Shown: piece after piece, positions 2,235 to 27,991 of the stretch | How the letters are laid out: each line of letters starts with the position of its first letter | Numbering within the stretch: the stretch's first letter is position 1 | Assembly: GCA_964523275.1 (NCBI GenBank) | Contig: CAZFZI010000002.1 | Coordinates: 3,217-35,636 of the forward strand | DNA length: 32,420 nucleotides | Source: an uncultured Candidatus Saccharibacteria bacterium | GTDB taxonomy: Bacteria > Patescibacteriota > Minisyncoccia > Minisyncoccales > UBA5738 | Direction of reading: 5' to 3' | The notes under the pieces: model-generated | Databases searched by the model: none | Seen by the model: the letters and a program-made list of their open reading frames with translations, nothing else | What the model was told of the DNA's origin: nothing | Program-made: the position numbers and the translations under genes

Positions 2235-2374
2235 TTCCCAAATCCTAATTTATAAATTCCAAACAAATCCAAATTTCAAAATGAAAAATTCAAAACGGAA
2301 TACGAATTTCATTTTGGATTTTGACATTCGGATTTTAGATTTGTTTAGGATTTGGCGCTTAGGATTTAGAATTT
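2235..2374. repeat. type A palindromic intergenic cassette (copy A1)
   Basis: A/C-rich left arm ...aaatcctaa...ccaaacaaatccaaat faces G/T-rich right arm gatttgtttaggattt...ttaggattt. Apex is aaaacggaatacgaattt. It fills the stop-to-start gap. Confidence 0.8.
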
Positions 2375-2383
2375 AATAAATTT

Positions 2384-3457
2384 ATGGATTTTGAAATATT
2401 TAAAACCAAGACAGAGGGCAAGGATCAAAAGTTCAACCTCACCGACCCCAAAGAGCGCAAGGATTATTTTTATTACAAAGCGGGGGAGGAGATTGAGAAA
2501 TTGAAAGATTATGTTAAAGAGCACACATTCATTGTCTATCTTTTGGGCAAAAAAAATTCCGGCAAAGGAACCTATTCCAAAATGTTGGCGGAATTGCTTG
2601 GCGCCGACACTTTGGATCATTTTTCCGTGGGTGATATGATTCGCGCGATTTCCAAAGAAATCAAAGATCCGGCCCGAAAAATAGAGTTGGAAATGTATTT
2701 GAAAAAGAATTACCGCGGGTGGGTTCCTCTGGAAAATTTGATCGCGGCGATTGAGGGGCGCGACACCAAAACGCTTTTGCCCACCGAGCTTATCCTGGCG
2801 CTGGTGAAGCGCGAGATTGCCAAAAGGCCGCGCAAAACCCTTTTTATTGATGGATTTCCCCGCGATATGGACCAAGTGTTCTATTCGCTGTTTTTCCGCG
2901 ACTTGATCGGTTTTCGTGAAGATGACGATGTGATGGCGTTTATTGATGTGCCCACCAATGTGATTGAAGAGCGGATAAAATACCGCCGGATTTGTCCCAT
3001 TTGCAACACCTCGCGCAATACCAAGCTTTTTCCGACCGCGCAAGTGGGTTATGACGAAAACACCGCTGAATTTTATTTGATTTGCGACAATCCGGATTGT
3101 TCGGGTTTTGGTCGTCAAAGAATGGGGCAAAAAGAAGGCGATGAGCTGGGGATTGAGCCGATTAAAGAACGATTAGATATTGATCAAAAATTGATGGAAA
3201 AAGCGATGGGATTGCACGGCATTCCCAAAATCTTTTTACGCAATTCAATTCCGGTTGATGTTGCCAAGGATTATGTTGATGATTATGAATTGACCATGGC
3301 CTATGATTATGAATGGGACGCGGCCGACAAAAAAGTTAATATCACCGAAAAGCCGTGGACGATTGCCGATGACAACGGCAAAGAATCGGTGAGCCTGCAG
3401 GCCCCGGCAGTGGCCGTGTCGCTGATCAAACAATTGGCCAAAGCACTGGGCATTTAA
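2384..3457 (+). CDS. atypical long adenylate-kinase-family (NMP kinase) paralog, 357 aa
   Basis: P-loop GKKNSGKGT, an IDGFPR motif and a four-Cys LID (CPIC ... CDNPDC) are present. Extra segments flank the kinase core: about 50 aa N-terminal and about 100 aa C-terminal. Confidence 0.65.
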   Translation: MDFEIFKTKTEGKDQKFNLTDPKERKDYFYYKAGEEIEKLKDYVKEHTFIVYLLGKKNSGKGTYSKMLAELLGADTLDHFSVGDMIRAISKEIKDPARKIELEMYLKKNYRGWVPLENLIAAIEGRDTKTLLPTELILALVKREIAKRPRKTLFIDGFPRDMDQVFYSLFFRDLIGFREDDDVMAFIDVPTNVIEERIKYRRICPICNTSRNTKLFPTAQVGYDENTAEFYLICDNPDCSGFGRQRMGQKEGDELGIEPIKERLDIDQKLMEKAMGLHGIPKIFLRNSIPVDVAKDYVDDYELTMAYDYEWDAADKKVNITEKPWTIADDNGKESVSLQAPAVAVSLIKQLAKALGI

Positions 3458-3486
3458 TCTTTAATCATAGAAGCATTAAAGCACTA

Positions 3487-3514
3487 GTCCCGCATTTGCG
3501 GGGCTTTTGTTTTA
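3487..3514 (+). terminator. rho-independent terminator after the adk-like gene
   Basis: Stem gtcccgc / gcggggc is 7 bp with one G:T pair and loop attt. It is followed by ttttgtttt. Confidence 0.65.
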
Positions 3515-3734
3515 TAACAATTTGACAGGGGGTATGAAGGGGTTATAATCAAAATAACCCTGTGGCCAAAGTTTTCCAACACACTTTTTAGGGGAACCGG
3601 ATATGGACCTTCGCTGTGGCGGCGGCCTACGGTACCCACTTACATTTTCGGATTACTTTTTCCCAGGGTTACCAAAAAATCCCGAGCTTATTGAGGGATT
3701 TTTTGGTAATGGTGAGCTTTGCCGAATTCATTAC

Positions 3735-3773
3735 CAAAAAAATGTCCTTCGACTTTGTTTAGGACATTTTTTG
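3735..3773 (-). terminator. bidirectional-looking terminator downstream of tRNA-Pro
   Basis: atgtcct (3742-3748) pairs with aggacat (3761-3767). An A-run lies on one side and a T-run on the other, so a hairpin plus U-tract forms on either strand. Confidence 0.5.
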
Positions 3774-3775
3774 TT

Positions 3776-3852
3776 CGGCGAATCAAAGATCGCCTTCGCT
3801 GAAGCTTCGGCGAATCAAAGATCGCCTTCGCTGAAGCTTCGGCGAATCAAAG
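3776..3852. repeat. 32-bp tandem direct repeat, about 2.4 copies (cggcgaatcaaagatcgccttcgctgaagctt)
   Basis: Units at 3776-3807 and 3808-3839 are identical. A 13-nt partial third unit (3840-3852) abuts the tRNA 3' end. Confidence 0.9.
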
Positions 3853-3923
3853 TCGGAACGCCGGGAATTGAACCCGGGTCTTACCCACCCCAAGGGCAAA
3901 TACTACCGTTATACTACGCTCCG
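3853..3923 (-). tRNA. tRNA-Pro (anticodon GGG), no encoded CCA
   Basis: Folded by hand on the reverse complement. Acceptor CGGAGCG/CGTTCCG has one G:T. The D stem is 4 bp and its loop contains GG. Anticodon stem TGCCC/GGGTA carries loop TTGGGGT, with GGG at plus 3889-3891 and G37. T arm is CCGGG-TTCAATT-CCCGG. C1-G72 is typical of bacterial tRNA-Pro. Confidence 0.85.
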
Positions 3924-3942
3924 CAATCTCGCCAAAGGCGGG

Positions 3943-4084
3943 AAAATTCTAATTTTCAAAATCCTAAATCCTAAACAAATTCAAAAATCAAAATCCAAAA
4001 TAAAATCCGTATTTCGTTTTGAGTTTTTAATTTTGAAATTTGGATTTGTTTGGAATTTGGCGCCTGGTGCTTGGAATTTGTTTA
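3943..4084. repeat. type A palindromic intergenic cassette (copy A2)
   Basis: Left arm is aaatcctaaatcctaaacaaattcaaaaatcaaaatcc. Right arm is ttttgaaatttggatttgtttggaattt. It lies between tRNA-Pro and rpmB, both on the minus strand. Confidence 0.8.
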
Positions 4085-4148
4085 TATTACACCACAATCC
4101 GCTTTTGCGGCGGATTGAAAGCAAACAGATATCGCCATTCCGAATGGT

Positions 4149-4349
4149 TTATTTGACGCGCGCCGGTTTGTGCAGGGTTTTGATGCACTTGGTGCAGGCT
4201 TTGATCTTTTGGCCGTCGGGCAAAGTGATTGATTGCAGGTTGGGTTGTTGTCTGCGCTTGGTTGTGGGGTTGAATTTGGTGGCACGCAGACGCACGCGCC
4301 TCCACACCACCATTCCTTTTTTGTCGCAGAGTTGGCAAACTTTAGACAT
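4149..4349 (-). CDS. rpmB: 50S ribosomal protein L28
   Basis: MSKVCQLCDKKGMVV...TKRRQQPNLQ matches the conserved L28 N-terminus and the KRR..PNLQ motif. Confidence 0.85.
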   Translation of the reverse strand: MSKVCQLCDKKGMVVWRRVRLRATKFNPTTKRRQQPNLQSITLPDGQKIKACTKCIKTLHKPARVK

Positions 4350-4351
4350 AG

Positions 4352-4407
4352 AATCATTTAATCATTTAATCGTTTAATCATATAATCATATAATTATATG
4401 ATCACCA
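4352..4407. repeat. 8-bp periodic micro-repeat (aatcattt x2, aatcgttt, aatcatat x2, aattatat, gatcacca)
   Basis: Read directly. It occupies the 55 nt immediately upstream of the rpmB start codon. On the minus strand it contains TATAAT/TATGAT-like hexamers. Confidence 0.8.
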
Positions 4408-4432
4408 AGACAAAATGATGAATATTTTAAAA

Positions 4433-4461
4433 TTGACAATAAAGCAATCATAGGATATTTT
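4433..4461 (+). promoter_or_regulatory. candidate sigma70-like promoter (TTGACA-17-TATTTT)
   Basis: TTGACA lies at 4433-4438 and TATTTT at 4456-4461. A transcript from here would carry cassette A3 as the 5' leader of the M50 protease gene. Confidence 0.4.
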
Positions 4462-4504
4462 TAGCCAATTGGCAAGAGCCAGCTTGAATGCTAAAATATA
4501 AAAG

Positions 4505-4650
4505 CCAAATTCTAAACTCTAAACCCTAAATCCCAAACAAATTCAAAAATCAAAATGTCAAAACCTAAAACAGAATTTTTATCCTGTTTTGAATTTGAAA
4601 ATTTGAATTTTGAGTTTGTTTAGAATTTAGAAATTGGGATTTAGGATTTT
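4505..4650. repeat. type A palindromic intergenic cassette (copy A3)
   Basis: Left arm is ccctaaatcccaaacaaattcaaaaatcaaaat. Right arm is ttttgagtttgtttagaatttagaaattgggatttaggatttt. It ends 9 nt before the ATG at 4660. Confidence 0.8.
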
Positions 4651-4659
4651 AAATTATTT

Positions 4660-5289
4660 ATGGAATTAACTTTTATCGTTTTCTCAATTATCGCGTTGAT
4701 TTTTTCGGTGGTGATTCACGAAGTGGCGCATGGCGCGGCCGCCGCGGCTCAAGGAGATCCCACGGCCAAATTTGCCGGCCGCCTCACGTTAAATCCCTTG
4801 AAGCATCTGGATTGGACCGGATCGGTGTTTCTGCCGCTGGTTTTGGTTGTTTTGCAATCGCCGATACTTTTTGGTTGGGCGAAGCCCGTGCCGGTTAATC
4901 CGCTTAATTTCCGCGACAAAAGATGGGGCGACGCCAAAGTGGCGGCGGCGGGTGCGGCGGCCAATTTCGCGCTGGCGCTGGTTTTTGGATTGATTCTGCG
5001 GTTTTGGCCGGAAATTTCCGATCCGATAAGCGCCAATTTTTATATGTTGGCGCAAACGGTGGTGATAATCAATTTGGTTTTGGGAATTTTTAATTTGATT
5101 CCCATTCCGCCCTTGGACGGGTCGCATGTTCTGTTCGCGTTCCTGCCGCCGTCGCAAACCGATTTCAAAATTTTTCTGCAACGCTACGGATTTATTTTTT
5201 TGCTGGTCCTGATTTGGTTTTTCTCGCCGATCATCTGGCCCATCGTGGCGTTTCTATATCAATTAATCACCGGCACATTCTTGATGTAG
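4660..5289 (+). CDS. site-2 protease family (peptidase M50) integral membrane zinc metalloprotease
   Basis: An HEVAH (HExxH) motif sits in the first TM helix. The protein is multi-TM and has the NLIPIPPLDGSH motif typical of M50/COG1994 proteins. Confidence 0.8.
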   Translation: MELTFIVFSIIALIFSVVIHEVAHGAAAAAQGDPTAKFAGRLTLNPLKHLDWTGSVFLPLVLVVLQSPILFGWAKPVPVNPLNFRDKRWGDAKVAAAGAAANFALALVFGLILRFWPEISDPISANFYMLAQTVVIINLVLGIFNLIPIPPLDGSHVLFAFLPPSQTDFKIFLQRYGFIFLLVLIWFFSPIIWPIVAFLYQLITGTFLM

Positions 5290-5449
5290 GATAAAAAAGT
5301 GAAGAACAATATCCCAAAGAGCGGCAATATCAAGGTAATTCAACATATGCGCGTAAATTTCCGGCAAAGTTGAGTCGCAAAACGCGCCGGTGTCAATTTC
5401 CCCGTTCCCGGGCGTTTTTTGTTCCATGGTCTGGAAAACACCGGAAGTT

Positions 5450-5479
5450 GGCAGGGGTCTTGCCTCTGCCGGTTTTTTT
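5450..5479 (+). terminator. rho-independent terminator
   Basis: ggcagggg (5450-5457) pairs with cctctgcc (5463-5470), 8 bp with one G:T and a 5-nt loop. It is followed by ggttttttt. Confidence 0.55.
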
Positions 5480-5487
5480 ATTGGTTT

Positions 5488-5516
5488 TTGACAAGTGCAA
5501 AAATTTTTATTATTGT
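5488..5516 (+). promoter_or_regulatory. candidate sigma70-like promoter (TTGACA-17-TATTGT)
   Basis: TTGACA lies at 5488-5493 and TATTGT at 5511-5516. It sits just upstream of the GGAGGTGG Shine-Dalgarno of the 5535 gene. Confidence 0.5.
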
Positions 5517-5534
5517 GCAGGCGGAGGTGGCGTT

Positions 5535-5840
5535 ATGCCGGTAGTCGAACATACCAAAGAAGAAATAGAGAAGATAGTTGATGGCGGCAGTGTTCTTGAT
5601 AACGGATTGATGTTAATGAATTTTGAGGCTGCCTACTGCAAGGATAATCCCGATAAAGTGATTCTTTGCGCCAGAAGTATTATGGCGAAGTATGATGGTT
5701 GTGGGGGAAGTGAAGAAATAGTAAGCTTGCTCATTCGAAAAGCAATGGAACACAATGATGCAGAAATGCTTTTACATGCGGCGAAGTTTATAACAGGAAA
5801 GTATCTGATGGTAGTTGATATAAAGTCAATCGCGGAGTAA
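5535..5840 (+). CDS. hypothetical protein (101 aa)
   Basis: The ATG at 5535 is preceded by GGAGGTGG. The ORF-track start at 5370 would read through the terminator and promoter. No recognisable motif. Confidence 0.55.
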
Positions 5841-5851
5841 TTTGCTCAGGT

Positions 5852-5880
5852 TTGACTTTTATTTTTTTTTATGATAGAAA
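5852..5880 (+). promoter_or_regulatory. weak candidate promoter for the str/S10/spc cluster (TTGACT-17-TAGAAA)
   Basis: TTGACT lies at 5852-5857. The -10 at 5875-5880 matches only 4 of 6 positions. Confidence 0.25.
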
Positions 5881-5959
5881 TACTTTGTTTGGGGGCAAAA
5901 TGTTCCAAACGAATTTTGTTTTGCGTTTTTCATCAATTTATCAATTTATTCATTATTCT

Positions 5960-6370
5960 ATGGCAACGATTCATCAACTCATCAAGAACAAACGCACTAA
6001 TCGCGCCCACAAGACAAAATCGCCGGCGCTGTCTTTTGGTTTTAACGCGCTGAAGAACCGCCCGCGAAATTATGTTTCGCCGTTCAAACGGGGAATTTGC
6101 ACGAAAGTTTTCACTGCCACTCCCAAAAAACCCAATTCGGCATTGCGTAAAGTGGCGCGCGTTAAATTGACCAATGGCATGGAAGTGACTGCCTACATTC
6201 CCGGCGAAGGACACAAATTGCAAGAACATTCCATTGTGTTGATTCGCGGAGGAAGGGTGAAAGATCTGCCGGGCGTGCGCTATCACGTTGTGCGCGGCAA
6301 GCTGGATTGCGGCGGCGTGGAAAAGCGCAAACAGGAACGGTCAAAGTATGGCGCGAAGAAACCCAAATAA
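5960..6370 (+). CDS. rpsL: 30S ribosomal protein S12
   Basis: [12 protein letters not shown]... and [10 protein letters not shown] motifs are present. The start was moved to the ATG at 5960, which gives the conserved S12 N-terminus. Confidence 0.95.
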
Positions 6371-6500
6371 AAATCAAAATCAAATTATAAATGATAAACA
6401 AAATCAAAATCAAATTTTAAAACGGAATTCGCAGTATTTGTTTTGATTTATAATTTGAGGTTTTGATTTTGTTTATAATTGAATTTTAGATTTTAAAATT
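6371..6500. repeat. type A' palindromic intergenic cassette (copy A4)
   Basis: Left arm is aaatcaaaatcaaattataaatgataaacaaaatcaaaatc. Right arm is ggttttgattttgtttataattgaattttagatttt. Apex is aaaacggaattcgcagtatt. It starts right after the rpsL TAA. Confidence 0.8.
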
Positions 6501-6506
6501 TTTAAA

Positions 6507-6974
6507 ATGCCTAGAGGAAAAATTACAAAAAAAGAGATTGCTCCGGACTTGGTATACAACAGCGTGGCGATTGCCCAGATCATCAATCACATCATGAAGC
6601 AGGGCAAGAAAAACGCGGCCAAAAAGATTGTCTATGGCGCGCTGGATATTATCAAAGAAAAAACCGGCAAAGAACCGCTGGAGGTTTTTGATTCGGCGAT
6701 GGAGAACGCTCGTCCGTTGTTGGAAGTTAAGTCCCAGCGGGTCGGCGGCGCTACCTATCAAGTGCCCAAGCCCGTGGCCAAAGAACGCGGGACGGCTCTG
6801 GCGGTGCGCTGGCTGTTGGAATCGGCGCGCAAAAAAAAGGGCCAACCGATGAAAGCCAAATTGGCCGAAGAATTAATCGGCGCGGCCAATAACACGGGGG
6901 TGGCCATCAAGAAAAAGGAGGACACTCATCGCATGGCCGAAGCCAACCGCGCTTTCGCGCATTTCCGCTTCTAA
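6507..6974 (+). CDS. rpsG: 30S ribosomal protein S7
   Basis: [11 protein letters not shown]... with S7-typical KQGKK and [15 protein letters not shown] motifs. Synteny follows rpsL. Confidence 0.95.
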
Positions 6975-7035
6975 TTGTAATATTGGCGGGGTTGTAATAA
7001 CTTACGTCGTCTGTTTTGTGTTGAAATTAGCTTTT

Positions 7036-7196
7036 ATCAAATCCAATTTTATCAAATCCAAAACTCTAAACTCTAAATCCTAAACAAATCCAAAATTCAA
7101 ATATCAAAATTTAAAGCAGAATTACGTAGTGGTTTTGAATTTTAGATTTTGAACATTTGAGTTTGTTTAGTGCTTAGAATTTAGTGCTTAGAATTT
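7036..7196. repeat. type A palindromic intergenic cassette (copy A5)
   Basis: Left arm is aaactctaaactctaaatcctaaacaaatccaaaattcaaat. Right arm is ttttgaacatttgagtttgtttagtgcttagaatttagtgcttagaattt. It ends 4 nt before the fusA ATG. Confidence 0.8.
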
Positions 7197-7200
7197 ATTT

Positions 7201-9309: not shown

Positions 9310-9319
9310 TTCGCGACAT

Positions 9320-9347
9320 TTGACTTTTTCTGAAAAACGAGTAGTAT
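9320..9347 (+). promoter_or_regulatory. candidate internal promoter ahead of tuf (TTGACT-16-TAGTAT)
   Basis: TTGACT lies at 9320-9325 and TAGTAT at 9342-9347 in the 95-nt fusA-tuf spacer. Confidence 0.3.
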
Positions 9348-9404
9348 ATAATTGTTGTTATTTTCATTGATTCTAAATAAATATAAAAAAATAAATAAAA
9401 ACCT

Positions 9405-10604: not shown

Positions 10605-10670
10605 ATAATTTTAAGAGAAATTCCAAAAGCGCCATTTCAAAAATGGAGGCGGGAAATTCAAAGCAGAAAG

Positions 10671-11021: not shown

Positions 11022-11071
11022 TCTGTTTTTGGAATTTTGAACAAGAAAAAAATCAGAGATATAGCCGTTAA

Positions 11072-11096
11072 GAAAGCCGGTCTATGCCCGGTTTTC
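11072..11096 (+). other. 9-bp hairpin with U-rich tail between rpsJ and rplC (attenuator/terminator-like)
   Basis: gaaagccgg (11072-11080) pairs with ccggttttc (11088-11096), with one G:T and a 7-nt loop. It is followed by tattgctttt. Confidence 0.35.
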
Positions 11097-11142
11097 TATT
11101 GCTTTTAAAGAATTAAACCAGAAAATTTAGAGTGTTGAATAT

Positions 11143-11742: not shown

Positions 11743-11885
11743 AAAATCAAATTATAAATAATAAATTATAAACAAAATCAAAATCTTAAATTATAAATCT
11801 AAAAAAATAACATGTATTCCGTTTTAAATTTTGATTTTAAATTTTGATTTTGTTTATAATTGGATTTTAAATTTTGATTTTTGAG
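11743..11885. repeat. type A' palindromic intergenic cassette (copy A6)
   Basis: It shares ataaacaaaatcaaaatc / ttttgattttgtttataattg with copy A4. Apex is tgtattccgtttt. It starts right after the rplC TAG. Confidence 0.8.
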
Positions 11886-11893
11886 ATATTTTT

Positions 11894-12604: not shown

Positions 12605-12613
12605 AAAATAGCT

Positions 12614-13012: not shown

Positions 13013-13137
13013 AAAAATAAAAGCTCAAAAATCAAAATTAAAAATGACAATGTAAGTTAAGAATTGGACAATTTTAAAATTTTTTAATTTTGAATTTTGA
13101 ACTGCCATTTTGATTTTTAAATTTTAAACTTTAAATT
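13013..13137. repeat. type C palindromic intergenic cassette (copy C1)
   Basis: aaaaatcaaaat (left) pairs with attttgattttt (right). The right end tttaaattttaaactttaaattaac runs up to the GTG start. Confidence 0.7.
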
Positions 13138-13140
13138 AAC

Positions 13141-13914: not shown

Positions 13915-14068
13915 AAATCATAAATAAAATCCAAAACACTAAATCCTAAATCCTAAACAAATCCAAAATCCAAAATCAAAAATTCAAAGTAGTTCATATT
14001 CTCTGTTTTGAATTTGGAAATTTGAGTTTTGAATTTGTTTGGGATTTGGAAATTAGAAATTAGAATTT
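13915..14068. repeat. type A palindromic intergenic cassette (copy A8)
   Basis: Left arm is aaatcctaaatcctaaacaaatccaaaatccaaaatcaaaaattcaaa. Right arm is tttgaatttggaaatttgagttttgaatttgtttgggatttgg. A 38-nt arm alignment differs mostly by transitions. Confidence 0.85.
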
Positions 14069-14077
14069 ATTTGAAAT

Positions 14078-14368
14078 ATGGCTCGGAGTTTAAAAAAAGG
14101 TCCTTTCGTGGACGAAAAGTTAATGGAAAAAGTCAAAAAAGGCGGTAGTGTCGTCATTAAGACTTGGTCGCGCCGAAGCACGATTGTTCCCGAGATGATC
14201 GGAATGGTTTTCGCGGTGCATAACGGCAAGGAATTTATCACGGTCAAGCCCAATGAAGATATGGTGGGGCACAAGCTGGGAGAGTTTTCGCCGACGACCA
14301 AGTTCCATCGCCACGGAGGCAAAATGCAGAAAGAATTGGAAGCCAAGCAAGCAGGGGCAAAAAAATAG
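14078..14368 (+). CDS. rpsS: 30S ribosomal protein S19
   Basis: [12 protein letters not shown]... and VHNGK.F..V motifs are present. Confidence 0.95.
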
Positions 14369-14454
14369 CGCAAAGCCAAAAGCGCAAAGCGCAAAGCCAA
14401 AATGCGGATTTCGTATTTTCGCTTTACACTCTTCGCTTTACACTTTAAGTTTTT
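14365..14454. repeat. type B (GCGCAAAG) palindromic cassette, copy B1
   Basis: tagcgcaaagccaaaagcgcaaagcgcaaagcc ... cgctttacactcttcgctttacactttaag. The first unit overlaps the rpsS TAG stop. It ends 3 nt before the rplV ATG. Confidence 0.85.
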
Positions 14455-14457
14455 ATT

Positions 14458-14859: not shown

Positions 14860-14903
14860 GAAAAAAGTAAATTTTTGAAAGTGAATAATTTTTAAATTGA
14901 AAC

Positions 14904-15557: not shown

Positions 15558-15678
15558 AAAATCAAAATTGAAAAATCAAAAATTAAAATTAAGGAATTAT
15601 TATATATATATCGTTGAAATTTTTGAAAAAATTTCAATACCAAAACTTTAAACTTTGATTTTTTAACTTTAAATTTGG
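15556..15678. repeat. type C palindromic intergenic cassette (copy C2)
   Basis: It starts aaaaaatcaaaattgaaaaatca, overlapping the AA of the rpsC TAA. It has an inner 10-bp AT hairpin at 15614-15637. The right end is tttaactttaaatttggaat before the ATG. Confidence 0.8.
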
Positions 15679-15681
15679 AAT

Positions 15682-16104: not shown

Positions 16105-16123
16105 ATAAAATAACGCAACATTG

Positions 16124-16306
16124 ATGAAAACATCGGAATTACGCCAAAAAAATAATCAGGAGTTAAATCAATTATTGGAAGAGCGGCTGACCAAGCTGGC
16201 CGGTTTGAAATTTGATTTGGCGGGCGGAAAAGTGAAAAATTTGAAAGAAATCCGCCAAACCAAGCTTGATATCGCACGTATTAAAACTTTGCAAAGAGAA
16301 AGTTAA
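16124..16306 (+). CDS. rpmC: 50S ribosomal protein L29
   Basis: [20 protein letters not shown]...[13 protein letters not shown]. The ATG at 16124 is preferred over the TTG at 16121. Confidence 0.9.
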
Positions 16307-16380
16307 AAAGCGAAAAACTAAAAGCGCAAAGCGCAAAGCAAAAATACGAATCCGTATTCCTGCTTTACGCTTTAAGTTTA
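16304..16380. repeat. type B (GCGCAAAG) palindromic cassette, copy B2
   Basis: taaaaagcgaaaaactaaaagcgcaaagcgcaaagcaaaaatacgaatccgtattcctgctttacgctttaag. It runs from the rpmC TAA to the rpsQ ATG. Confidence 0.85.
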
Positions 16381-16382
16381 TT

Positions 16383-16694
16383 ATGAAGCATCAATTAACA
16401 GGAAAAATAGTTTCTGACAAAATGGATAAAACCGTTGTGGTTTTGGTGGAGCGGCTTAAAGAGCATCCCAAATACCGCCGGCGTTATAAAGTGAGCAAAA
16501 AATACAAAGCTCATGACGAAAAAGGCGAGTACAAGATTGGCGATGTGGTGGTGATTGAGGAGTGCCGTCCGATCTCGGCGGATAAACGCTGGAAGGTGGT
16601 TAAAGAGGTTGTTGCCGCGGAGGTCAAAGACAAAGAAAGCAAAAACAAGAAAGGGAAAAAAGAGGGAGATCAAGACCAAGATAAGGAAGAATAA
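16383..16694 (+). CDS. rpsQ: 30S ribosomal protein S17 (acidic/basic C-terminal tail)
   Basis: [16 protein letters not shown]...HPKY.R......K..AHDE is present. The start was moved to the ATG at 16383, because the ORF-track start reads through cassette B2. Confidence 0.93.
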
Positions 16695-16779
16695 GGCGGC
16701 GGCATTGCATTTTTTTGCGATTTATAGTATATAAAAAAAGTTGCGGCGATTTTTGAAATTTTAGATTCAAACTCAAAAT

Positions 16780-17151
16780 ATGATTCAATTGAGGACAATG
16801 TTAAAGGTGGCGGATAACAGTGGCGGCAAGATCGTTCAGTGTTTTCATGTTGCCGGCGGAACGAGACGCAGGTATGCGGCAGTGGGGGATGTGATAATGG
16901 GCGCGGTGAAAGAGGCTGAGCCGCGAAAAGGAGTTAAAAAACACGATAAAGTGCGCGCGGTGATTGTCCGGCAAAGAAAGGAATACAAGCGTTCCGACGG
17001 CACTTATGTGCGTTTTGATGATAATGCCTGTGTGATTTTGGAAGGCAAAAGCAAAGAGCCCAAAGGCGGCCGTATTTTTGGGCCGGTGGCAAAAGAATTG
17101 AAAGTGAAGGGTTATGATAAGATTGCGGCGATAGCCAAAGAGCTGGTTTAA
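16780..17151 (+). CDS. rplN: 50S ribosomal protein L14
   Basis: MIQLRTMLKVADNSGGK N-terminus is present. Confidence 0.95.
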   Translation: MIQLRTMLKVADNSGGKIVQCFHVAGGTRRRYAAVGDVIMGAVKEAEPRKGVKKHDKVRAVIVRQRKEYKRSDGTYVRFDDNACVILEGKSKEPKGGRIFGPVAKELKVKGYDKIAAIAKELV

Positions 17152-17237
17152 AAGCGCAAAACTAAAAGCGCAAAGCGCAAAGCAAAAATACGAATTCGTA
17201 TTCCTGCTTTACTCTTTACACTTTACACTTTAAGTTT
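17149..17237. repeat. type B (GCGCAAAG) palindromic cassette, copy B3
   Basis: taaaagcgcaaaactaaaagcgcaaagcgcaaagcaaaaatacgaattcgtattcctgctttactctttacactttacactttaag. The apex aatacgaattcgtatt is a perfect 16-nt palindrome. Confidence 0.9.
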
Positions 17238-17239
17238 TT

Positions 17240-17563
17240 ATGAAGATTATTAAAGGCGACAATGTGTTAATAATATCCGGAAAAGACCGCGCGAAAACGG
17301 GAAAAGTGTTAAAATCTTTACCCAAGTTTGGCCGTGTTGTGGTGGAAGGCGTTAATATCGTCAAAAAAAGCCAGCGGCCCCGCCAGCAAGGGCAAAAAGG
17401 GCAGATTGTTTCCTTTTCCAAGCCGATTGATGTATCAAACGTGAAGTTGCTGTGTTCCAAATGCGGCAAGCCCACGCGAGTGGGTTACAGGGCGATGGAA
17501 GGTGAAAAAACCGGCCAAACGAAATCGGTGCGCGTTTGCAAGAAATGTTCGGCGGAAATCTAA
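17240..17563 (+). CDS. rplX: 50S ribosomal protein L24 (C-terminal CxxC...CxxC)
   Basis: MKIIKGDNVLIISGKDRAKTGKV (KOW motif) is present. The C-terminus carries CSKCGKPTRVGY...CKKC. Confidence 0.93.
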   Translation: MKIIKGDNVLIISGKDRAKTGKVLKSLPKFGRVVVEGVNIVKKSQRPRQQGQKGQIVSFSKPIDVSNVKLLCSKCGKPTRVGYRAMEGEKTGQTKSVRVCKKCSAEI

Positions 17564-17652
17564 AAAGCGCAAAACTAAAAGCGCAAAGCGCAAAGCAAAA
17601 ATACGAATTCGTATTCCTGCTTTACTCTTTACACTTTATACTTTAAGTTTTT
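17561..17652. repeat. type B (GCGCAAAG) palindromic cassette, copy B4
   Basis: Nearly identical to B3 over about 88 nt. One substitution is visible in the arms (ttacactttaag becomes ttatactttaag), and there are small length differences at the two ends. Confidence 0.9.
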
Positions 17653-17654
17653 AT

Positions 17655-18221
17655 ATGGCTTCTTTATACGAAAAATATAAAAAAGAGACGGTGGCGGAAT
17701 TGATGAAACAGTTTGGCTATCGCAATCAGAATCAAGCGCCTCGAATTGAAAAGGCGACGGTTAATTGCGGTTTTGGACGAATGATTTCAGGAAAGACCAA
17801 AGATGAGCAAAGAAAAATACAAGAAGCGGTGGCGCGGGATTTAACTCAAATTTGCGGACAGCTCGCGGTGGTAACCAAGGCGCGCAAATCAATTGCCGGT
17901 TTCAAGATTCGCGAAGGCCAAAACATCGGCGCCAAAATCACCTTGCGCCGCGCCCGTATGTATGATTTTTTGGAGAGAACGATTTTTGTGGCGTTGCCTC
18001 GTTCCCGTGATTTTCAGGGAATTCCGGCCAGAGGAGTTGATCAAGATGGAAATTTGACTTTTGGAATAAAAGAACATATTGCGTTTCCGGAAGTTTCGCC
18101 CGAAAAAATCAATTTTATTTTCAGCTTTGAAGTTACGATCACGACTACCGCGCGTTCCCGGGAAGAAGGATTGGAAATGTTTAAGTTGCTGGGGTTTCCC
18201 ATCCAAAAAAATCAAAATTGA
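17655..18221 (+). CDS. rplE: 50S ribosomal protein L5
   Basis: The N-terminus LYEKYKKE..ELMKQFGY.N....PRIEK and the internal motif FGIKEHIAFPE are present. The start was moved to the ATG at 17655, because the ORF-track start reads through cassette B4. The gene ends with a TGA stop. Confidence 0.93.
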   Translation: MASLYEKYKKETVAELMKQFGYRNQNQAPRIEKATVNCGFGRMISGKTKDEQRKIQEAVARDLTQICGQLAVVTKARKSIAGFKIREGQNIGAKITLRRARMYDFLERTIFVALPRSRDFQGIPARGVDQDGNLTFGIKEHIAFPEVSPEKINFIFSFEVTITTTARSREEGLEMFKLLGFPIQKNQN

Positions 18222-18265
18222 AAAATCTGCGTTTTATGCGCGGATATTTAAACTTTAAATTTGAA
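18205..18265. repeat. type C cassette, short copy C3, overlapping the last 5 codons and stop of rplE
   Basis: aaaaaatcaaaattgaaaaatc (18205-18226) matches the left ends of C2 and C4. A hairpin atctgcg/cgcggat follows. The right end is atatttaaactttaaatttgaaac before the ATG. Confidence 0.75.
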
Positions 18266-18267
18266 AC

Positions 18268-18453
18268 ATGGCTACAAAAGCACAAATTGCAAAATCAAAA
18301 AGAACACCCAAATTCAAATGCCGGGTGGTGCGGAGATGCTTTCGTTGTGGACGAAAACACGGGTATATGAGAAAATTTGGTTTGTGCCGCATTTGTTTTC
18401 GTGAGGCGGCTAACCAAGGGTTGATCCCCGGCGTGTCAAAGAGCAGCTGGTAA
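18268..18453 (+). CDS. rpsN: 30S ribosomal protein S14, short zinc-binding (type Z) form
   Basis: The protein is 61 aa with CFRCGR...CRIC cysteines and C-terminal KSSW. Confidence 0.93.
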
Positions 18454-18456
18454 TGT

Positions 18457-18600
18457 TTTAAAAATCAAAGCACTAAATATCAAATTCTAAATAAATTCAA
18501 AATCCAAAATCAAAAATTAAAAACAAAACGCAGTGTTAAAGTTTTGAAATTTGAATTTTTAATTTGTTTAGAATTTGAAAATTAGAATTTAGAAATTAAT
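18457..18600. repeat. type A palindromic intergenic cassette (copy A10)
   Basis: Left arm is aaattctaaataaattcaaaatccaaaatcaaaaattaaaaac. Right arm is gttttgaaatttgaatttttaatttgtttagaatttgaaaattagaatttag. Confidence 0.8.
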
Positions 18601-18606
18601 TTAATT

Positions 18607-19011
18607 ATGGATACAGTCGCAAATATGTTAACCGTGATTCGCAACGCCCAAGCGGTGGCAAAACCGATGGTGGCCGTCCCTTATTCGCGTTTGAATTACG
18701 ACATCGCCAAGATTCTTGAAAGAAGGGGTTTTGTCGCGGGGGCGGAAAAAAGAAGCCGCAAGGTAAAGAAAAGCGCTAAAACCAGGCTTTGTTTGGAGAT
18801 TACGCTGAAATACACCGATAAAATTCCGGCGGTGGCCGGGTGCAAAAAAGTTTCCAAGTCCGGACAAAGGATTTATGTGGCGGCAAGCAATATCAAAAGA
18901 GTTAAGCAAGGGCGCGGTATTGGCATTATTTCAACTTCAAAGGGGCTGATGACTGAATACGACGCGAAGAAACAGAATATCGGCGGTGAAATGCTTTGCG
19001 AGATTTGGTAA
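18607..19011 (+). CDS. rpsH: 30S ribosomal protein S8
   Basis: DTVANMLTVIRNA N-terminus is present. Synteny supports the call. Confidence 0.95.
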   Translation: MDTVANMLTVIRNAQAVAKPMVAVPYSRLNYDIAKILERRGFVAGAEKRSRKVKKSAKTRLCLEITLKYTDKIPAVAGCKKVSKSGQRIYVAASNIKRVKQGRGIGIISTSKGLMTEYDAKKQNIGGEMLCEIW

Positions 19012-19014
19012 TAT

Positions 19015-19077
19015 AAAAAATCAAAATTGAAAAATCAAGAATCAAAATTTTTGATATTTAAATTTTAAATTTGAAAC
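19015..19077. repeat. type C cassette, short copy C4
   Basis: aaaaaatcaaaattgaaaaatcaagaatcaaaatttttgatatttaaattttaaatttgaaac runs directly into the rplF ATG. Confidence 0.8.
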
Positions 19078-19623
19078 ATGAGCAGAATAGGCAAAAAACC
19101 GATTATAATTCCCGCGGGAATCCAAGTGGAAATTGATGAATCGCTGGTGAAGGTGAAGGGCGTGAAAGGCGAGCTGGCTCGCGATTTCGGATCGCAGGTT
19201 TCGGTTATCAAAGAAGATGGCTTGCTGAAAGTTTTGCCCAAAAACGAAAGCAAATTCGCGCGCGCGATGTGGGGCACGGTGAGAATGCATCTGGCGAATA
19301 TGATTGAGGGAACAAGCAATGGCTTTGCCAAGCAGTTGCAGATTGAGGGCATTGGTTATCGCGCGGTTCTTGAAGGAGATAATTTGGTTTTGAATATGGG
19401 GTTCACTAATCCGGTTGCCATCGCCAAACCCGAGGATATTTCTTTTAAAGTGGAAAAAAATATTATTACTGTTTCCGGGTGTAATAAGGAATCAGTGGGA
19501 AAAGTTGCCGCGCAGATCCGCCGAGTGCGTCCGCCGGAACCCTATAAGGGCAAAGGTATTCGCTATGTCGGTGAAAAAGTGCGCCGGAAGGTGGGCAAGA
19601 AAGCTGCCGGGGCCGCCAAATAA
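19078..19623 (+). CDS. rplF: 50S ribosomal protein L6
   Basis: MSRIGKKPIIIPAGIQV N-terminus and a PEPYKGKGIRY motif are present. Confidence 0.95.
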   Translation: MSRIGKKPIIIPAGIQVEIDESLVKVKGVKGELARDFGSQVSVIKEDGLLKVLPKNESKFARAMWGTVRMHLANMIEGTSNGFAKQLQIEGIGYRAVLEGDNLVLNMGFTNPVAIAKPEDISFKVEKNIITVSGCNKESVGKVAAQIRRVRPPEPYKGKGIRYVGEKVRRKVGKKAAGAAK

Positions 19624-19710
19624 AAAAGCGCAAAGTTAAAAGCGCAAAGTTAAAAGCAAAAATACGAATCCGCATTTTTGTTTCACACTTTCCGCTTCAC
19701 ACTTTAAGAT
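19621..19710. repeat. type B (GCGCAAAG) palindromic cassette, copy B5
   Basis: taaaaaagcgcaaagttaaaagcgcaaagttaaaagcaaaaatacgaatccgcatttttgtttcacactttccgcttcacactttaag. It begins at the rplF TAA. Confidence 0.85.
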
Positions 19711-19716
19711 TTCAAG

Positions 19717-20103
19717 ATGAGCACTAGTAACAAAACACAACATAAATTGAAAAGAAGGGATGACCGGCACCGTCGCGTGCGCGCCAAGGTGGCGGGAGTG
19801 GCGTTGCGGCCCAGATTGTGCGTTTTTCGTTCCAACAAGCATATTTCCGTTCAATTGATTGATGATAAAAAAGGTGCCACTTTGGCGGCTTGCGATGATT
19901 TGAAAATTGCCGCCGGAACGACTGAAGCAAAAGACGGCTTGTCGTCAAAATGCGCTTTGGCCTTCGCGGTTGGGCTGGAAATAGCAAAAAAAGCGCAACA
20001 ATTAAAGATCACTGGCGCGGTTTTTGATCGCGGCGGATATCGTTATCATGGACGTGTGAAAAGTTTGGCTGACGGCGCGCGGCAAGGCGGACTTGAATTT
20101 TAA
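19717..20103 (+). CDS. rplR: 50S ribosomal protein L18
   Basis: RHRRVRAKV.G...RPRL.VFRSNKHI..Q.IDD and DRGGY.YHGRVK..ADGAR..GL.F are present. Confidence 0.95.
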   Translation: MSTSNKTQHKLKRRDDRHRRVRAKVAGVALRPRLCVFRSNKHISVQLIDDKKGATLAACDDLKIAAGTTEAKDGLSSKCALAFAVGLEIAKKAQQLKITGAVFDRGGYRYHGRVKSLADGARQGGLEF

Positions 20104-20188
20104 AAGCGCAAAGCTAAAAGCGCAAAGCTAAAAGCAAAAATACGAATCCGCATTCTTGCTTTATACTTTTCGCTTTACACTTTAAGAT
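20101..20188. repeat. type B (GCGCAAAG) palindromic cassette, copy B6
   Basis: taaaagcgcaaagctaaaagcgcaaagctaaaagcaaaaatacgaatccgcattcttgctttatacttttcgctttacactttaag. It begins at the rplR TAA. Confidence 0.85.
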
Positions 20189-20194
20189 TATTTT

Positions 20195-20887
20195 ATGGAG
20201 GCACCAAAAACAACGCAAACAACTCAAAACAGAAGCGCGGCAACGCCGACAGTTCCGGGCGCTGATCGCAAAAGATCGGGTTTTGGAGGACCGGGCGGAT
20301 TTTCAAGACCGAGAGGCGACAGCCGTTTTGGAGGCCGCGGCCGCGGCGGTTTTGGTCGTCGCGATGATGGCCGCAAAAAAGATAATTTTGATTCCAAATT
20401 GCTGGATTTGTCGCGAGTTTCACACACGCGCGCCGGCGGACGCCGTTTGCGTTTCCGCGCCATCATAGTTAGCGGCGATAAAGCGGGGAAGGTTGGATTG
20501 GGGGTGGCTTCGGGGTCGGATGTGGCGCAAGCGGTTGAAAAAGCTACCGCGCAATCCAAAAAAAATATGATTACGGTTCCCGTGGTTAAAGGAACCATTT
20601 CGCACGAAGTAATTGCCAAAGTTGGTCCGGCGCGAGTGATTGTCAAACCTCAGCGCAAAGGGCGGGGGTTGATGGCCGGTGGCGTGGTGCGCTTGCTTTG
20701 CCAGCTGGCGGGGATTAAGGATATTTCTTCAAAAGTGCTGGGAACCACAAAAAACAAGCTGAATAACGCGCGCGCGACAATGAAAGCGTTTGAATATTTG
20801 CAGATGCAATCGGCAAAAAGCGTTGATGGCGCGCAAACGGAGAAGGTTGAAAAATCGGAAGAAAAAGAAATCCCGGCCGTCCAATAA
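20195..20887 (+). CDS. rpsE: 30S ribosomal protein S5 with about 60-aa Arg/Gly-rich N-terminal extension and acidic C-terminal tail
   Basis: The S5 core is present (RVSHTRAGGRRLRFRAIIVSGD..G.VG.G). It is preceded by RSGFGGPGGFSRPRGDSRFGGRGRGGFGRRDDGRKK. Confidence 0.93.
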   Translation: MEAPKTTQTTQNRSAATPTVPGADRKRSGFGGPGGFSRPRGDSRFGGRGRGGFGRRDDGRKKDNFDSKLLDLSRVSHTRAGGRRLRFRAIIVSGDKAGKVGLGVASGSDVAQAVEKATAQSKKNMITVPVVKGTISHEVIAKVGPARVIVKPQRKGRGLMAGGVVRLLCQLAGIKDISSKVLGTTKNKLNNARATMKAFEYLQMQSAKSVDGAQTEKVEKSEEKEIPAVQ

Positions 20888-20913
20888 ACCAGATATTGAA
20901 ATTAACTATTTTT

Positions 20914-21345
20914 ATGCAGATACATCAATTAACCAAGACAGCTTCGGTCAAAATCAGGAAACGCATTGGCCGCGGCGGCAAACGGGGAACCTATTCCGGC
21001 CATGGAGGCAAGGGGCAGACTGCCCGCGCCGGAAGAAAATTTTGCCCGATCGTGCGAGAGGTTTTGAAACGCTATCCCAAATTGAGGGGTTATAAAAACA
21101 ACCCCGTGGGTTTTGCACCGGAGATTGTGAACGTTGGAATATTGGAAGCCAAATTTGGAAAAGGGGAAACAATCAGCCCTCGGGTTTTGGTTGAAAAAGA
21201 TATTGTTTGCCGTGTTGGCGGCAAATATCCAAAAGTGAAGATATTGGGCAAAGGCATTATTTCTAAAAATTTAAATCTTTGCGGGTGTGAAGTTTCCGCG
21301 TCTGCCAAAGAAAAGATTGAGAAAGCCGGCGGAACCATAAAATAA
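20914..21345 (+). CDS. rplO: 50S ribosomal protein L15
   Basis: The IGRGGKRGTYSGHGGKGQ motif is present. The ATG at 20914 is preferred over the TTG at 20896. It lies only 26 nt after rpsE, so no L30 gene fits between them. Confidence 0.93.
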   Translation: MQIHQLTKTASVKIRKRIGRGGKRGTYSGHGGKGQTARAGRKFCPIVREVLKRYPKLRGYKNNPVGFAPEIVNVGILEAKFGKGETISPRVLVEKDIVCRVGGKYPKVKILGKGIISKNLNLCGCEVSASAKEKIEKAGGTIK

Positions 21346-21487
21346 AAATCCCAAGAACCAAATCTCAAATCCCAAACAAAATCAAAAATCAAAATTCAAA
21401 AATTAAAACAAAAATCTTTCCGTTTTGGATTTGAAAATTTGATTTTTGAATTTATTTGAGATTTGGGATTTAGAATTTGGAATTTAA
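21346..21487. repeat. type A palindromic intergenic cassette (copy A13)
   Basis: Left arm is aaatctcaaatcccaaacaaaatcaaaaatcaaaattcaaaaattaaaac. Right arm is gttttggatttgaaaatttgatttttgaatttatttgagatttgggatttagaattt. It runs from the rplO TAA to 5 nt before the secY ATG. Confidence 0.8.
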
Positions 21488-21492
21488 ATTCA

Positions 21493-27949: not shown

Positions 27950-27991
27950 TTATTAGAGAAAATTGCTGAAAAATATTTCGCGAAAAGAATT

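Follow-up and report, generated by a model that had tools for sequence, protein, structure and literature searches.

Heptad-repeat palindromes at the gene junctions of a Patescibacteria ribosomal-protein supercluster, and the occurrence of one palindrome family across bacterial phyla

Most gene junctions of a ribosomal-protein supercluster were found to be filled by palindromes of 7-nt repeats in an uncultured Candidatus Saccharibacteria bacterium (assembly GCA_964523275.1, contig CAZFZI010000002.1, positions 3,217 to 35,636). This stretch of 32,420 nt is referred to here as the window, and all positions are counted from its first letter unless another genome is named. The supercluster runs on the plus strand in the order rpsL-rpsG-fusA-tuf-S10-spc-secY, from rpsL (5960-6370) to secY (21493-22779), as assigned from open reading frames (ORFs) and homology. 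Imperfect palindromes of about 55-165 nt, here called cassettes, occupied 15 of the 24 junctions from rpsL to secY and three further loci outside the cluster (2235, 3943 and 4505). The commonest of their types, type A, belongs to a non-coding repeat family spanning more than a dozen phyla. With a probability of roughly 0.55, we regard the cassettes as selfish or neutral heptad-repeat palindromes acting at the DNA level, similar to the STRR of cyanobacteria or to MITEs (miniature transposable elements with inverted repeats), and tolerated since they fold away, and not as a device dedicated to regulation.

Type A cassettes belong to a repeat family found in many phyla

The 17-mer AAATCCYAAACAAATYC from type A was scanned against the GTDB species genomes, yielding at least 120 loci. 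Bare matches to it mean little, because by our own estimate, made for uniform base composition, a few hundred are expected by chance in 596 Gb. About half of the matches listed, however, belonged to one and the same palindrome, about 130-150 nt long and with its modules in an unchanged order. The hosts among the matches listed include Omnitrophota, Planctomycetota (with a contig of 2.59 Mb), Bacteroidota (with one of 647 kb), Chloroflexota, Desulfobacterota, Verrucomicrobiota, Nitrospirota, Elusimicrobiota, WOR-3, Clostridia, an Actinomycetes bin, a Pontiellaceae isolate, several classes of Patescibacteria and a Methanophagales bin. Contigs of megabase scale from Planctomycetia and Bacteroidales carried type A copies, several copies within one 8-kb locus were seen in other phyla, and full palindromes were present in 10 of 104 matches in viral contigs.

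A covariance model, R1, was built from 24 aligned copies from outside the candidate phyla radiation (CPR), with no CPR sequence included. In the window it matched six cassettes end to end (positions 1-139 of 139, E 1e-13 to 3e-17) and three or four further ones at E values of 2e-10 to 0.02, among them 18459-18599 (2e-10) and 6368-6503 (1.5e-4). The three copies that the first-pass annotation of this DNA had placed outside the cluster proved to be genuine type A by the same model (E 1e-13 to 1e-17). R1 was not promiscuous, since 527 kb of contigs that had been selected for another repeat yielded no more than about seven elements. In the loci of other phyla it also recovered copies lacking the 17-mer: a Phycisphaerales locus contained three of them, a Saccharibacteria locus five, and Omnitrophota and Planctomycetia loci two each. 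With type B it gave an E value of about 0.03 and with type C of about 0.9; the heptad-palindrome plan is common to types A, B and C, and homology of types B and C to type A was not demonstrable. In both the alignment and the window, the modules followed the order of YTAAATCC / AGCACY units, a YAAACAAATYC landmark, AAAWTYC units, the apex and the mirror image. Positions of conserved mismatch in the cross-phylum alignment show that the type A element has polarity. Among the matches listed from other phyla, 21 copies lay between co-directional, 8 between divergent and 7 between convergent genes, which corresponds to roughly random intergenic placement.

Metagenome contigs were also searched with an 18-mer of type B, and the resulting count is a lower bound. 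Matches occurred in contigs of 31-69% GC; about one fifth of those listed were hairpins, some of them beside type A heptads. In the metagenome contigs L310 (2584-2765), L246 and L280, type B heptads (AAAGCGC) directly adjoined type A elements, which suggests that types A and B form composite arrays or co-reside.

BLAST of one type A copy against cultured plasmids and phages gave no match, to which the low-complexity filter may have contributed. When the window was searched with Rfam 15, only tRNA passed the gathering threshold, and at E values up to 5 only spurious matches to miRNA hairpins, far below threshold, were added. Literature searches retrieved no description of AAATCC / AAACAAAT palindromes. 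The presence of one palindrome of about 140 nt, in multiple copies and with no transposase seen nearby, in more than a dozen phyla, among them Planctomycetota, Omnitrophota, Bacteroidota, Chloroflexota, Desulfobacterota, Verrucomicrobiota and Patescibacteria, thus points to a widespread repeat family for which no description was found.

Cassettes are inverted arrays of 7-nt units that span stop to start

All 24 junctions from rpsL to secY were printed, searched for inverted repeats and folded on both strands, and the RNA folding energy of each was compared with 100 dinucleotide-preserving shuffles. The filled junctions were rpsL-rpsG, rpsG-fusA, rplC-rplD, rplW-rplB, rplB-rpsS, rpsS-rplV, rpsC-rplP, rpmC-rpsQ, rplN-rplX, rplX-rplE, rpsN-rpsH, rpsH-rplF, rplF-rplR, rplR-rpsE and rplO-secY. 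Only short remnants with a leader-like 3' motif were present at rplV-rpsC and rplE-rpsN, so that an earlier count of 16 occupied junctions was essentially right, the exact figure being 15 full palindromes and two short 3'-leader remnants. The cassettes were far more stable than shuffled sequence on both strands, with z values of -2.1 to -8.5 on at least one strand in all of them except the short rpsH-rplF copy, whose fold was not significant.

Units of 7 nt, repeated in inverted arrays, make up the arms. The best period was 7 nt in 17 of 18 cassettes (z 3-6 against shuffled arms), and Tandem Repeats Finder reported arrays of period 7 or 14 with the units AAATCCT, AAAATCA, AAACTCT, AAAGCGC, CTTTACA and TTTAGAA; the sub-repeats of 7-9 nt described at first are to be corrected accordingly. 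Cassettes had a GC content of 12-33%. A near absence of G from 5' arms and of C from 3' arms, asserted in the first-pass annotation for every copy, was confirmed in types A, A' and C, with 3% G in the former arms and 3% C in the latter, and failed for type B, in which the 5' arm is composed of A, G and C and the 3' arm of T, C and A. An apex containing CG was seen in about 10 of 17 copies and was not conserved outside the window genome, which corrects the common apex motif described at first.

At co-directional junctions, the helix began 0-13 nt past the stop codon, or within it, and ended 0-13 nt 5' of the next start codon in 15 of 16 cassettes, bearing out the view that they act as complete stop-to-start spacers. 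The type B copies at 16307-16383 and 17561-17653 were concealed in over-long ORF calls. ORFs 16266-16694, 17502-18221 and 21463-22779 run through cassettes and thereby give rpsQ, rplE and secY false N-terminal extensions; the public gene calls for genome L002 make the same error. Cassettes are consequently a hazard for annotation, producing false N-terminal extensions and inflated 'intergenic' content in CPR genomes.

Cassettes are gained, lost and replaced among related genomes

A search with the S3 protein retrieved relatives labelled Paceibacterota or Minisyncoccales, which places the organism among the Patescibacteria (CPR). The orthologous operon was taken from relatives with 86, 85, 84, 81, 79 and 72% S3 identity, and all of its genes were mapped. 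The length of a single spacer, rplO-secY, was 147, 17, 10, 49, 77, 113 and 121 nt in different genomes. Under a uniform and rather strict hairpin criterion applied to 24 junctions, occupancy was 14 in the window, 15 in L016, 10 in L015, 7 in L012, 3 in L010, 1 in L017 and 3 of 22 scored junctions in L007, where the hairpins are GC-richer and were undercounted. Among relatives with 72-86% S3 identity, the number of occupied junctions thus varied between 1 and 15 of 24. The flavour of the heptads was specific to each genome, e.g. GAATTTA / GAATCAA in L015, AAATGTC / AAAGATC in L016 and ATAAGTG in L010. Cassettes from the same junction of different genomes were no more alike than paralogues (identity 66-80% for type A and 62-96% for type B), and shared junctions are therefore no evidence of conservation. 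Comparison of the orthologous operons, which had been proposed as a check, showed that heptad hairpins recur in the sister genomes and that their occupancy is not conserved junction by junction.

Turnover was also visible between close strains. The genes of L010 and L011 are 97.5-100% identical, nearly all of them at least 99%, and the two genomes carried unrelated cassettes of 111 and 158 nt at rpsN-rpsH. At rplC-rplD they differed by 28 nt, i.e. by exactly four heptads, which suggests that heptad arrays grow and shrink in 7-nt steps by slippage. Junctions of L010 were mostly compact (10-40 nt); the cassettes are therefore dispensable, and the ribosomal operon clearly works without them. L012 and L013 form a mosaic with at least 99% identity from rpsC onward and 86-97% upstream, the breakpoint lying between rplV and rpsC, which indicates either recombination between strains or a chimeric assembly. 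Their occupancy differed at rplC-rplD, rplB-rpsS and rpsS-rplV, all in the divergent part. No insertion boundaries could be derived from this comparison of empty with filled junctions, because whole spacers had been replaced and the contigs are mosaic. Taken over the close strains, polymorphism by presence, absence or replacement was found at about 93-99% gene identity.

Strand bias and orientation of the arms

Each element was aligned to its own reverse complement, and mismatches were classed as G.U or A.C on the sense strand. Over all genomes, 295 G.U and 275 A.C mismatches were counted, which amounts to no overall strand bias. Wobble-tolerant selection on the fold of the sense mRNA is therefore not indicated, and this candidate was dropped. 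The six type B copies of the window showed 2 G.U versus 35 A.C mismatches, their minus strand reaching folding energies of about -32 to -41 kcal/mol versus -20 to -23 kcal/mol for the plus strand, while type B relatives in L015 and L016 were free of a minus-strand bias. Because the six copies share ancestry and these relatives are unbiased, the bias counts as one inherited feature and not as six.

The strand on which the type A model scored better differed among the copies of the window. Besides rpsC-rplP of the window, the asymmetric core of type C occurred in L007, L010-L012 and L016, in both orientations, and was inverted at two junctions of L016. The lack of an overall strand bias and the mixed orientation argue against a sequence-specific function of the sense RNA. 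Complementarity of the arms was about 72-80% Watson-Crick and thus similar to the identity between paralogues (66-80%), so that neutral decay of once-perfect palindromes suffices to account for the window copies.

Distribution within the genome and at rRNA helix tips

With an extension of 10 kb on each side of the window, about 52 kb of the genome was examined. Cassettes were not confined to the S10 and spc region, as one was present at rpsM-rpsK in the alpha operon. Targeting of gene junctions, one of the properties suggested at first, could be retained as an enrichment in ribosomal operons of the window genome and could not be retained as a property of the family, whose members lie at spacers of all orientation classes and at rRNA helix tips. 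The cassettes are not junction-specific as a family, yet they accumulate in the ribosomal operons of this lineage.

In the Saccharibacteria metagenome-assembled genome L072, the gene for 23S rRNA was found to contain three type A copies, all of them placed precisely at hairpin tips (L072 positions 3576-3773, 3882-4108 and 4445-4610, corresponding to positions of about 165, 286 and 583 of the large-subunit model). The inserts at the first two sites were 179 and 211 nt long, and the site at about 583 lies in the helix-25 region. A fourth copy was found nearer the 3' end of the gene (6191-6358) and a fifth just upstream of the gene (2938-3072). Each of the three copies at hairpin tips formed part of a larger composite insert, in which the hairpins on its flanks were GC-richer and similar; elsewhere, too, type A often lay between complementary GC-rich flanks, i.e. 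in the loop of a host hairpin. CPR 23S genes are known to carry many short, ORF-less, non-intron insertions at the sites of classical intervening sequences (IVSs) (PMC11270868), and the copies of L072 fit this description. With its copies at 23S helix tips, type A is thus a concrete candidate source of the short insertions without ORFs in CPR rRNA.

Individual cassettes of the window

In the following, z values for the two strands are given as a pair. Outside the cluster, the type A cassette at 2232-2375 filled the stop-to-start spacer between a Lactamase_B-like and an ADK-like gene (z -4.9/-5.5; R1 over full length, E 1e-14), and the one at 3944-4079 lay between the minus-strand genes for tRNA-Pro and rpmB (R1 E 5e-15; palindrome score 102). 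This tRNA-Pro(GGG) gene occupies 3852-3923 on the minus strand, and a perfect 32-nt tandem repeat of 2.5 copies (TTCGGCGAATCAAAGATCGCCTTCGCTGAAGC; 3774-3852) abuts its 3' end. The third, at 4498-4661 (R1 E 3e-17), was found upstream of an M50 peptidase gene. Promoter-like sites at 4433-4461 and 4469-4497 directly precede it, and for this reason it probably forms the 5' untranslated region of that gene.

Type A cassettes within the supercluster were those of rpsG-fusA (7054-7196, ending 5 nt before the ATG; z -3.7/-4.5; R1 E 1e-16), rplB-rpsS (13922-14072; z -6.2/-6.3; R1 E 2e-16) and rplO-secY (21346-21485; z -4.8/-8.5; R1 E 1e-14), the 3' arm of the last having earlier been read as an N-terminal extension of secY. 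Type A', with AAAATCA units, was represented at rpsL-rpsG (6368-6504), where it reached from the T of the TAA stop to 3 nt before the ATG (z -4.3/-5.6; R1 E 1.5e-4), at rplC-rplD (11743-11881; z -4.8/-5.9; R1 E 0.02; period 7) and at rpsN-rpsH (18458-18604; z -4.3/-4.6; R1 E 2e-10). An AT-rich heptad palindrome at rplW-rplB (13020-13132) gave z -1.1/-3.3, an R1 E value of 0.01 and a period-7 z of 4.9.

Type B, built as (AAAGCGC)n / (CTTTACA)n, began within the TAG stop at rpsS-rplV (14367-14444; z -2.7 on the plus and -6.0 on the minus strand; 0 G.U versus 6 A.C mismatches). Further copies lay at rpmC-rpsQ (16307-16383, inside the false extension of rpsQ; z -4.4/-5.9), at rplN-rplX (17149-17240, starting with the T of the TAA stop and ending on the A of the ATG; z -3.3/-7.3), at rplX-rplE (17561-17653, inside the false extension of rplE; z -2.7/-5.4), at rplF-rplR (19625-19712; z -3.7/-4.9) and at rplR-rpsE (20104-20190; z -2.1/-5.6). 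The rplN-rplX copy was 96% identical to that of rplX-rplE. Type C, at rpsC-rplP (15558-15676; z -2.1/-4.1), had AAAAATC arms around the asymmetric core AAGGAAT..TATATCGTTGAAATTTTTG-AAAAAATTTCAA. The short, type C-like hairpin at rpsH-rplF (19017-19072) had a palindrome score of 57, a period-7 z of 3.6 and folding z values of -1.1/-0.4, and its 3' arm was the conserved leader TTTAAATTTGAAAC.

Leaders and other features of the junctions

The ribosomal genes of the window lack a Shine-Dalgarno (SD) sequence, and many have the leader TTTAAATTTGRAAY directly 5' of the ATG. It occupied the 13 nt before rplP (15669-15681), rpsN (18255-18267) and rplF (19065-19077) and was also found in L007, L010, L012 and L013; 7 of its 7 occurrences in L007 and 7 of 8 in L013 were at annotated starts of ribosomal genes. 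The same leader forms the end of some type C 3' arms.

Cassette-free junctions held other features conserved across relatives. At rpsJ-rplC (11071-11097), a hairpin, AGAAAGCCGG.CTATGCCCGGTTTTCT, was followed by a U-run and was kept in every sister genome, even at 72% S3 identity; this CCGGGCTATGCCCGGTTTTC hairpin had no Rfam match and looks like an attenuator or a regulatory structure of the terminator type. Likewise conserved across relatives were an AATTCC...GGAATT hairpin before rpsJ (tuf-rpsJ, 10620-10660), the promoter TTGACT-N16/17-TAGTAT/TATAAT before tuf (fusA-tuf, 9320-9350) and a promoter-like block, TTGCAT...TATAGTATATA, before rplN (rpsQ-rplN, 16700-16760). A second, GC-rich mini-repeat was observed in or beside AT-rich cassettes, in both orientations, at rplC-rplD, rplE-rpsN and rplW-rplB of L007 and at rpsN-rpsH of L011; it is a REP-like double hairpin of CCCGCCAGAGGCGGG and TGCGCCTCAGGCGCA. 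The gene rpmD was absent between rpsE and rplO of the window. On the 3' side of secY lay adk and map, followed by sugar-nucleotide genes, a pair of restriction-modification genes and tpiA. The restriction-modification genes, Eco57I-like and DpnII-like (26518-28579), had a GC content of 0.32-0.36 and probably represent a horizontally acquired island of low GC.

Interpretation of the cassettes

Among the five roles listed in the first-pass annotation, that of a selfish element was best supported, as the cassettes are gained, lost and replaced, are dispensable, occur in mixed orientation and have relatives in many phyla. Each is a non-coding, AT-rich interspersed repeat made of an inverted pair of arrays of 7-nt units (AAATCCT, AAAATCA, AAAGCGC etc.), so that either strand forms one long hairpin, and whole cassettes are gained, lost or swapped between close strains. 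They would persist where a self-folding insert is harmless, such as in the stop-to-start spacers of operons, in 5' untranslated regions and in terminal loops, including the IVS region of 23S rRNA. In ribosomal mRNA the hairpin may fold the insert away, so that the upstream stop and the downstream start would meet at the base of one helix. Translational coupling would then be preserved and perhaps tightened, since a ribosome that terminates there could open the helix at its base and so expose the AU-rich leader, which lacks an SD sequence. Long AU-rich double-stranded RNA would also arise at each junction as a substrate for RNase III, as in the intercistronic sites of phage T7, Correia elements and rRNA IVSs, and it is probably cut by that enzyme. 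RNase processing and translational coupling are plausible consequences of the hairpins.

Several observations weigh against selfish or neutral DNA. Cassettes occupied 16 of 31 junctions in ribosomal or translation operons versus 3-4 of 34 other spacers (Fisher p about 0.001), an enrichment that could reflect function. That a streamlined genome of roughly 1 Mb should keep about 10% hairpin DNA in its most conserved operon would be strange if this were junk and nothing else, and the helices span stop to start more tightly than compact spacers of 10-40 nt would predict. RNAalifold gave only 14 consensus pairs for the cross-phylum alignment. When pairs were instead counted on a 49-pair structure from per-sequence palindrome alignments of the same sequences, a procedure that leans towards structure, covarying pairs across phyla (AAATCCT/AGGATTT versus AAATCCC/GGGATTT) scored 0.136 compared with 0.110 for shuffled alignments, and none of 500 shuffles scored as high; subfamily structure alone could explain this covariation of the arms. 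All-against-all clustering of ORFs revealed no recurrent family within about 4 kb of the 120 type A loci listed, and no neighbouring transposase gene was seen. The flanks of 25 copies contained no target-site duplication, direct repeat or conserved target, and the relatives compared provided no clean pair of an empty site and a site differing by the insertion only. Mobility is thus inferred from the distribution of the cassettes.

The main rival is an adaptive RNA acting in cis, which would couple translation in an SD-less operon by sequestering the AU-rich leader until upstream termination, would segment or stabilize the mRNA through RNase III, or would do both. It is kept alive by the enrichment at ribosomal junctions of the window genome, by the stop-to-start fit of 15 of 16 cassettes at co-directional junctions and by the TTTAAATTTGRAAY leader, common to SD-less ribosomal genes, with which type C 3' arms end. 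For the STRR hairpins in the hupS-hupL spacer, the same roles have been put forward (PMC2670836), and the TAACTGA heptamers stop 1 nt short of start codons without a ribosome-binding site (PMC4679880). Close relatives nevertheless run the operon with compact junctions, occupancy is not conserved by junction, and asymmetric features occur in mixed orientation. The sense strand has no excess of G.U over A.C, its type B folds in the window being weakened by C.A mismatches, and members of the family also lie in the spacers of convergent and divergent genes and within rRNA. On balance we hold an adaptive role to be unlikely. A transcriptional role, as terminators, as antisense insulators or as weak internal or antisense promoters supplied by arms rich in TTGxxx / TAxAAT, appears improbable. 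In its favour are the better minus-strand fold and the mismatch bias of the window type B copies, two of which scored as terminator-like sites on that strand, and pairs of promoter-like hexamers, many of them in cassette arms, which numbered 48 versus 30.8 +/- 5.3 expected. The bias was confined to one family of one genome, being lacking in the type B copies of L015 and L016 and in the other families, and is one feature inherited from a common ancestor; the antisense insulator suggested at first thus has the type B folds as its sole support, the bias being absent overall. Terminator-like sites were not enriched (36 versus 29.4 +/- 4.1), and the AU-rich stems are without the GC-rich base and the U-tract of intrinsic terminators.

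Still less probable are DNA-structural sites, i.e. cruciforms, bends from phased A-tracts or arrays for nucleoid proteins that would organize a highly transcribed region. Such sites would agree with a hairpin potential that is symmetric on both strands and free of an RNA-type wobble bias, and with the regular A3/T3 tracts. Planar bending of DNA, however, needs A-tracts phased at about 10.5 bp; those of the cassettes are phased at 7 bp, which makes the bent DNA of the first-pass annotation unlikely. Types A, B and C also have no conserved sequence in common that resembles a protein-binding site, and sister genomes dispense with the cassettes. That low-complexity, AT-rich spacers or misassembly should merely resemble palindromes is hardly credible. 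The spacers are indeed AT-rich and repetitive, but their folds lie well below those of dinucleotide shuffles, and covariance E values reach 1e-17 with a model that found so few elements in contigs bearing another repeat. Artefacts of assembly are ruled out by junction lengths that are identical in the independent JGI, ENA and Logan assemblies of the window species.

The reading of the cassettes as selfish or neutral palindromes can be extended, tentatively and with some doubt. Type A would then be one horizontally spreading, transposase-less family of heptad palindromes, each about 140 nt long, with a range that covers more than a dozen bacterial phyla and extends to some archaeal bins and to viral contigs, and moving by an undescribed mechanism that targets hairpin tips or grows from them. 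Hairpins of operon junctions, STRR-like arrays and short 23S IVSs would be the work of one mobile agent, co-opted in SD-poor Patescibacteria as a stop-to-start bridge of ribosomal-protein operons. The main interest lies in the family that crosses phyla and in its link to rRNA insertions. Of interest for genome evolution are the hairpin repeats in the most conserved operon of a small, streamlined genome and their turnover, which can be seen even where nearly all genes of two strains are at least 99% identical. The family is also a tractable system in which to ask why bacterial intergenic DNA holds an excess of heptanucleotide repeats and to study roles in coupling and RNase III processing.

Comparison with known repeats

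Small non-coding intergenic palindromes that are co-transcribed within operons include Correia/NEMIS, ERIC, RUP and REP/BIME/REPIN elements, and in these respects the cassettes resemble them. Correia hairpins undergo cleavage by RNase III, and those of REP elements stabilize the upstream mRNA. Unlike all of these, the cassettes have arms made of heptad arrays and not of unique terminal inverted repeats, show no sequence similarity or Rfam match that we could find, and have a host range that spans phyla. REP/BIME/REPIN were rejected as a class, since they are short (20-40 nt), GC-rich, often paired hairpins associated with RAYT, whereas the cassettes measure 55-165 nt at 12-33% GC and no RAYT-like gene was present in the 52 kb. 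Of the features of MITEs, insertion polymorphism was seen and a target-site duplication was not seen in the flanks of 25 copies. The attC sites of integrons (RYYYAAC ... GTTRRRY) were rejected because, by inspection, the landmark YCCTAAAC / GTTTAGGR does not fit them, no integrase was found in the 52 kb and the flanks are essential ribosomal genes. Intrinsic terminators were likewise rejected from the count of terminator-like sites, only two type B copies being flagged, both on the minus strand.

Intercistronic RNase III sites of phage T7 are hairpins between the cistrons of a polycistronic mRNA and would serve as a model for the cassettes if RNase III cuts them. They differ in being conserved, functional and shorter, with interrupted helices, whereas the cassettes are variable and dispensable. 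A further likeness is to 23S IVSs, as relatives of type A sit at 23S helix tips in L072, while the window copies lie between protein genes instead. Classical IVSs are sporadic hairpin inserts that are thought to spread horizontally and are removed by RNase III (PMC11270868).

The earlier statement that the cassettes have no recognizable precedent was too strong, since intergenic heptanucleotide hairpins and repeats abutting start codons have been described (PMC2670836, PMC4679880, PMC4692102). The TAACTGA heptamers of Beggiatoaceae, Cyanobacteria and Bacteroidetes end 1 nt before their start codons; their spread across phyla suggests horizontal transfer by a mechanism that is not evident, and strains differ by 7-nt indels (PMC4679880). 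For the heptamers GGGAATC and GGGGAYT of Xanthomonas and Nostoc, polymerase slippage has been proposed (PMC4692102). The cassettes have in common with these heptamers that arrays abut SD-less starts, that strains differ by 7-nt indels and that the phylogenetic distribution is scattered; some of the heptamers are also arranged as inverted repeats (PMC4679880, PMC4692102). Most of them, however, form direct arrays in one orientation to the gene, whereas the cassettes are complete palindromes of AT-rich units in either orientation.

In cyanobacteria, STRR heptanucleotide hairpins between operon genes such as hupS and hupL have been suggested to act in transcript stability or translational coupling (PMC2670836), and according to Vioque (1997), as cited in PMC2858038, STRR in the gene for RNase P RNA extend a helix. 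The cassettes agree with STRR in their 7-nt units, in their position in spacers within operons, in inverted arrays that form hairpins, in a sequence and length that vary between close strains while structure is kept, and in the ability to extend a helix of a structural RNA. They differ in their units (AAATCCT, AAAATCA, AAAGCGC and CTTTACA, compared with CCCCAGT and similar units) and in filling most junctions of a ribosomal supercluster. STRR are known from heterocystous cyanobacteria, whereas the cassette family is a defined palindrome of about 140 nt with a fixed module order that occurs across phyla. The closest described kind is the heptanucleotide repeat class, to which the cassettes belong as repeats of the same kind as STRR and of a different family.

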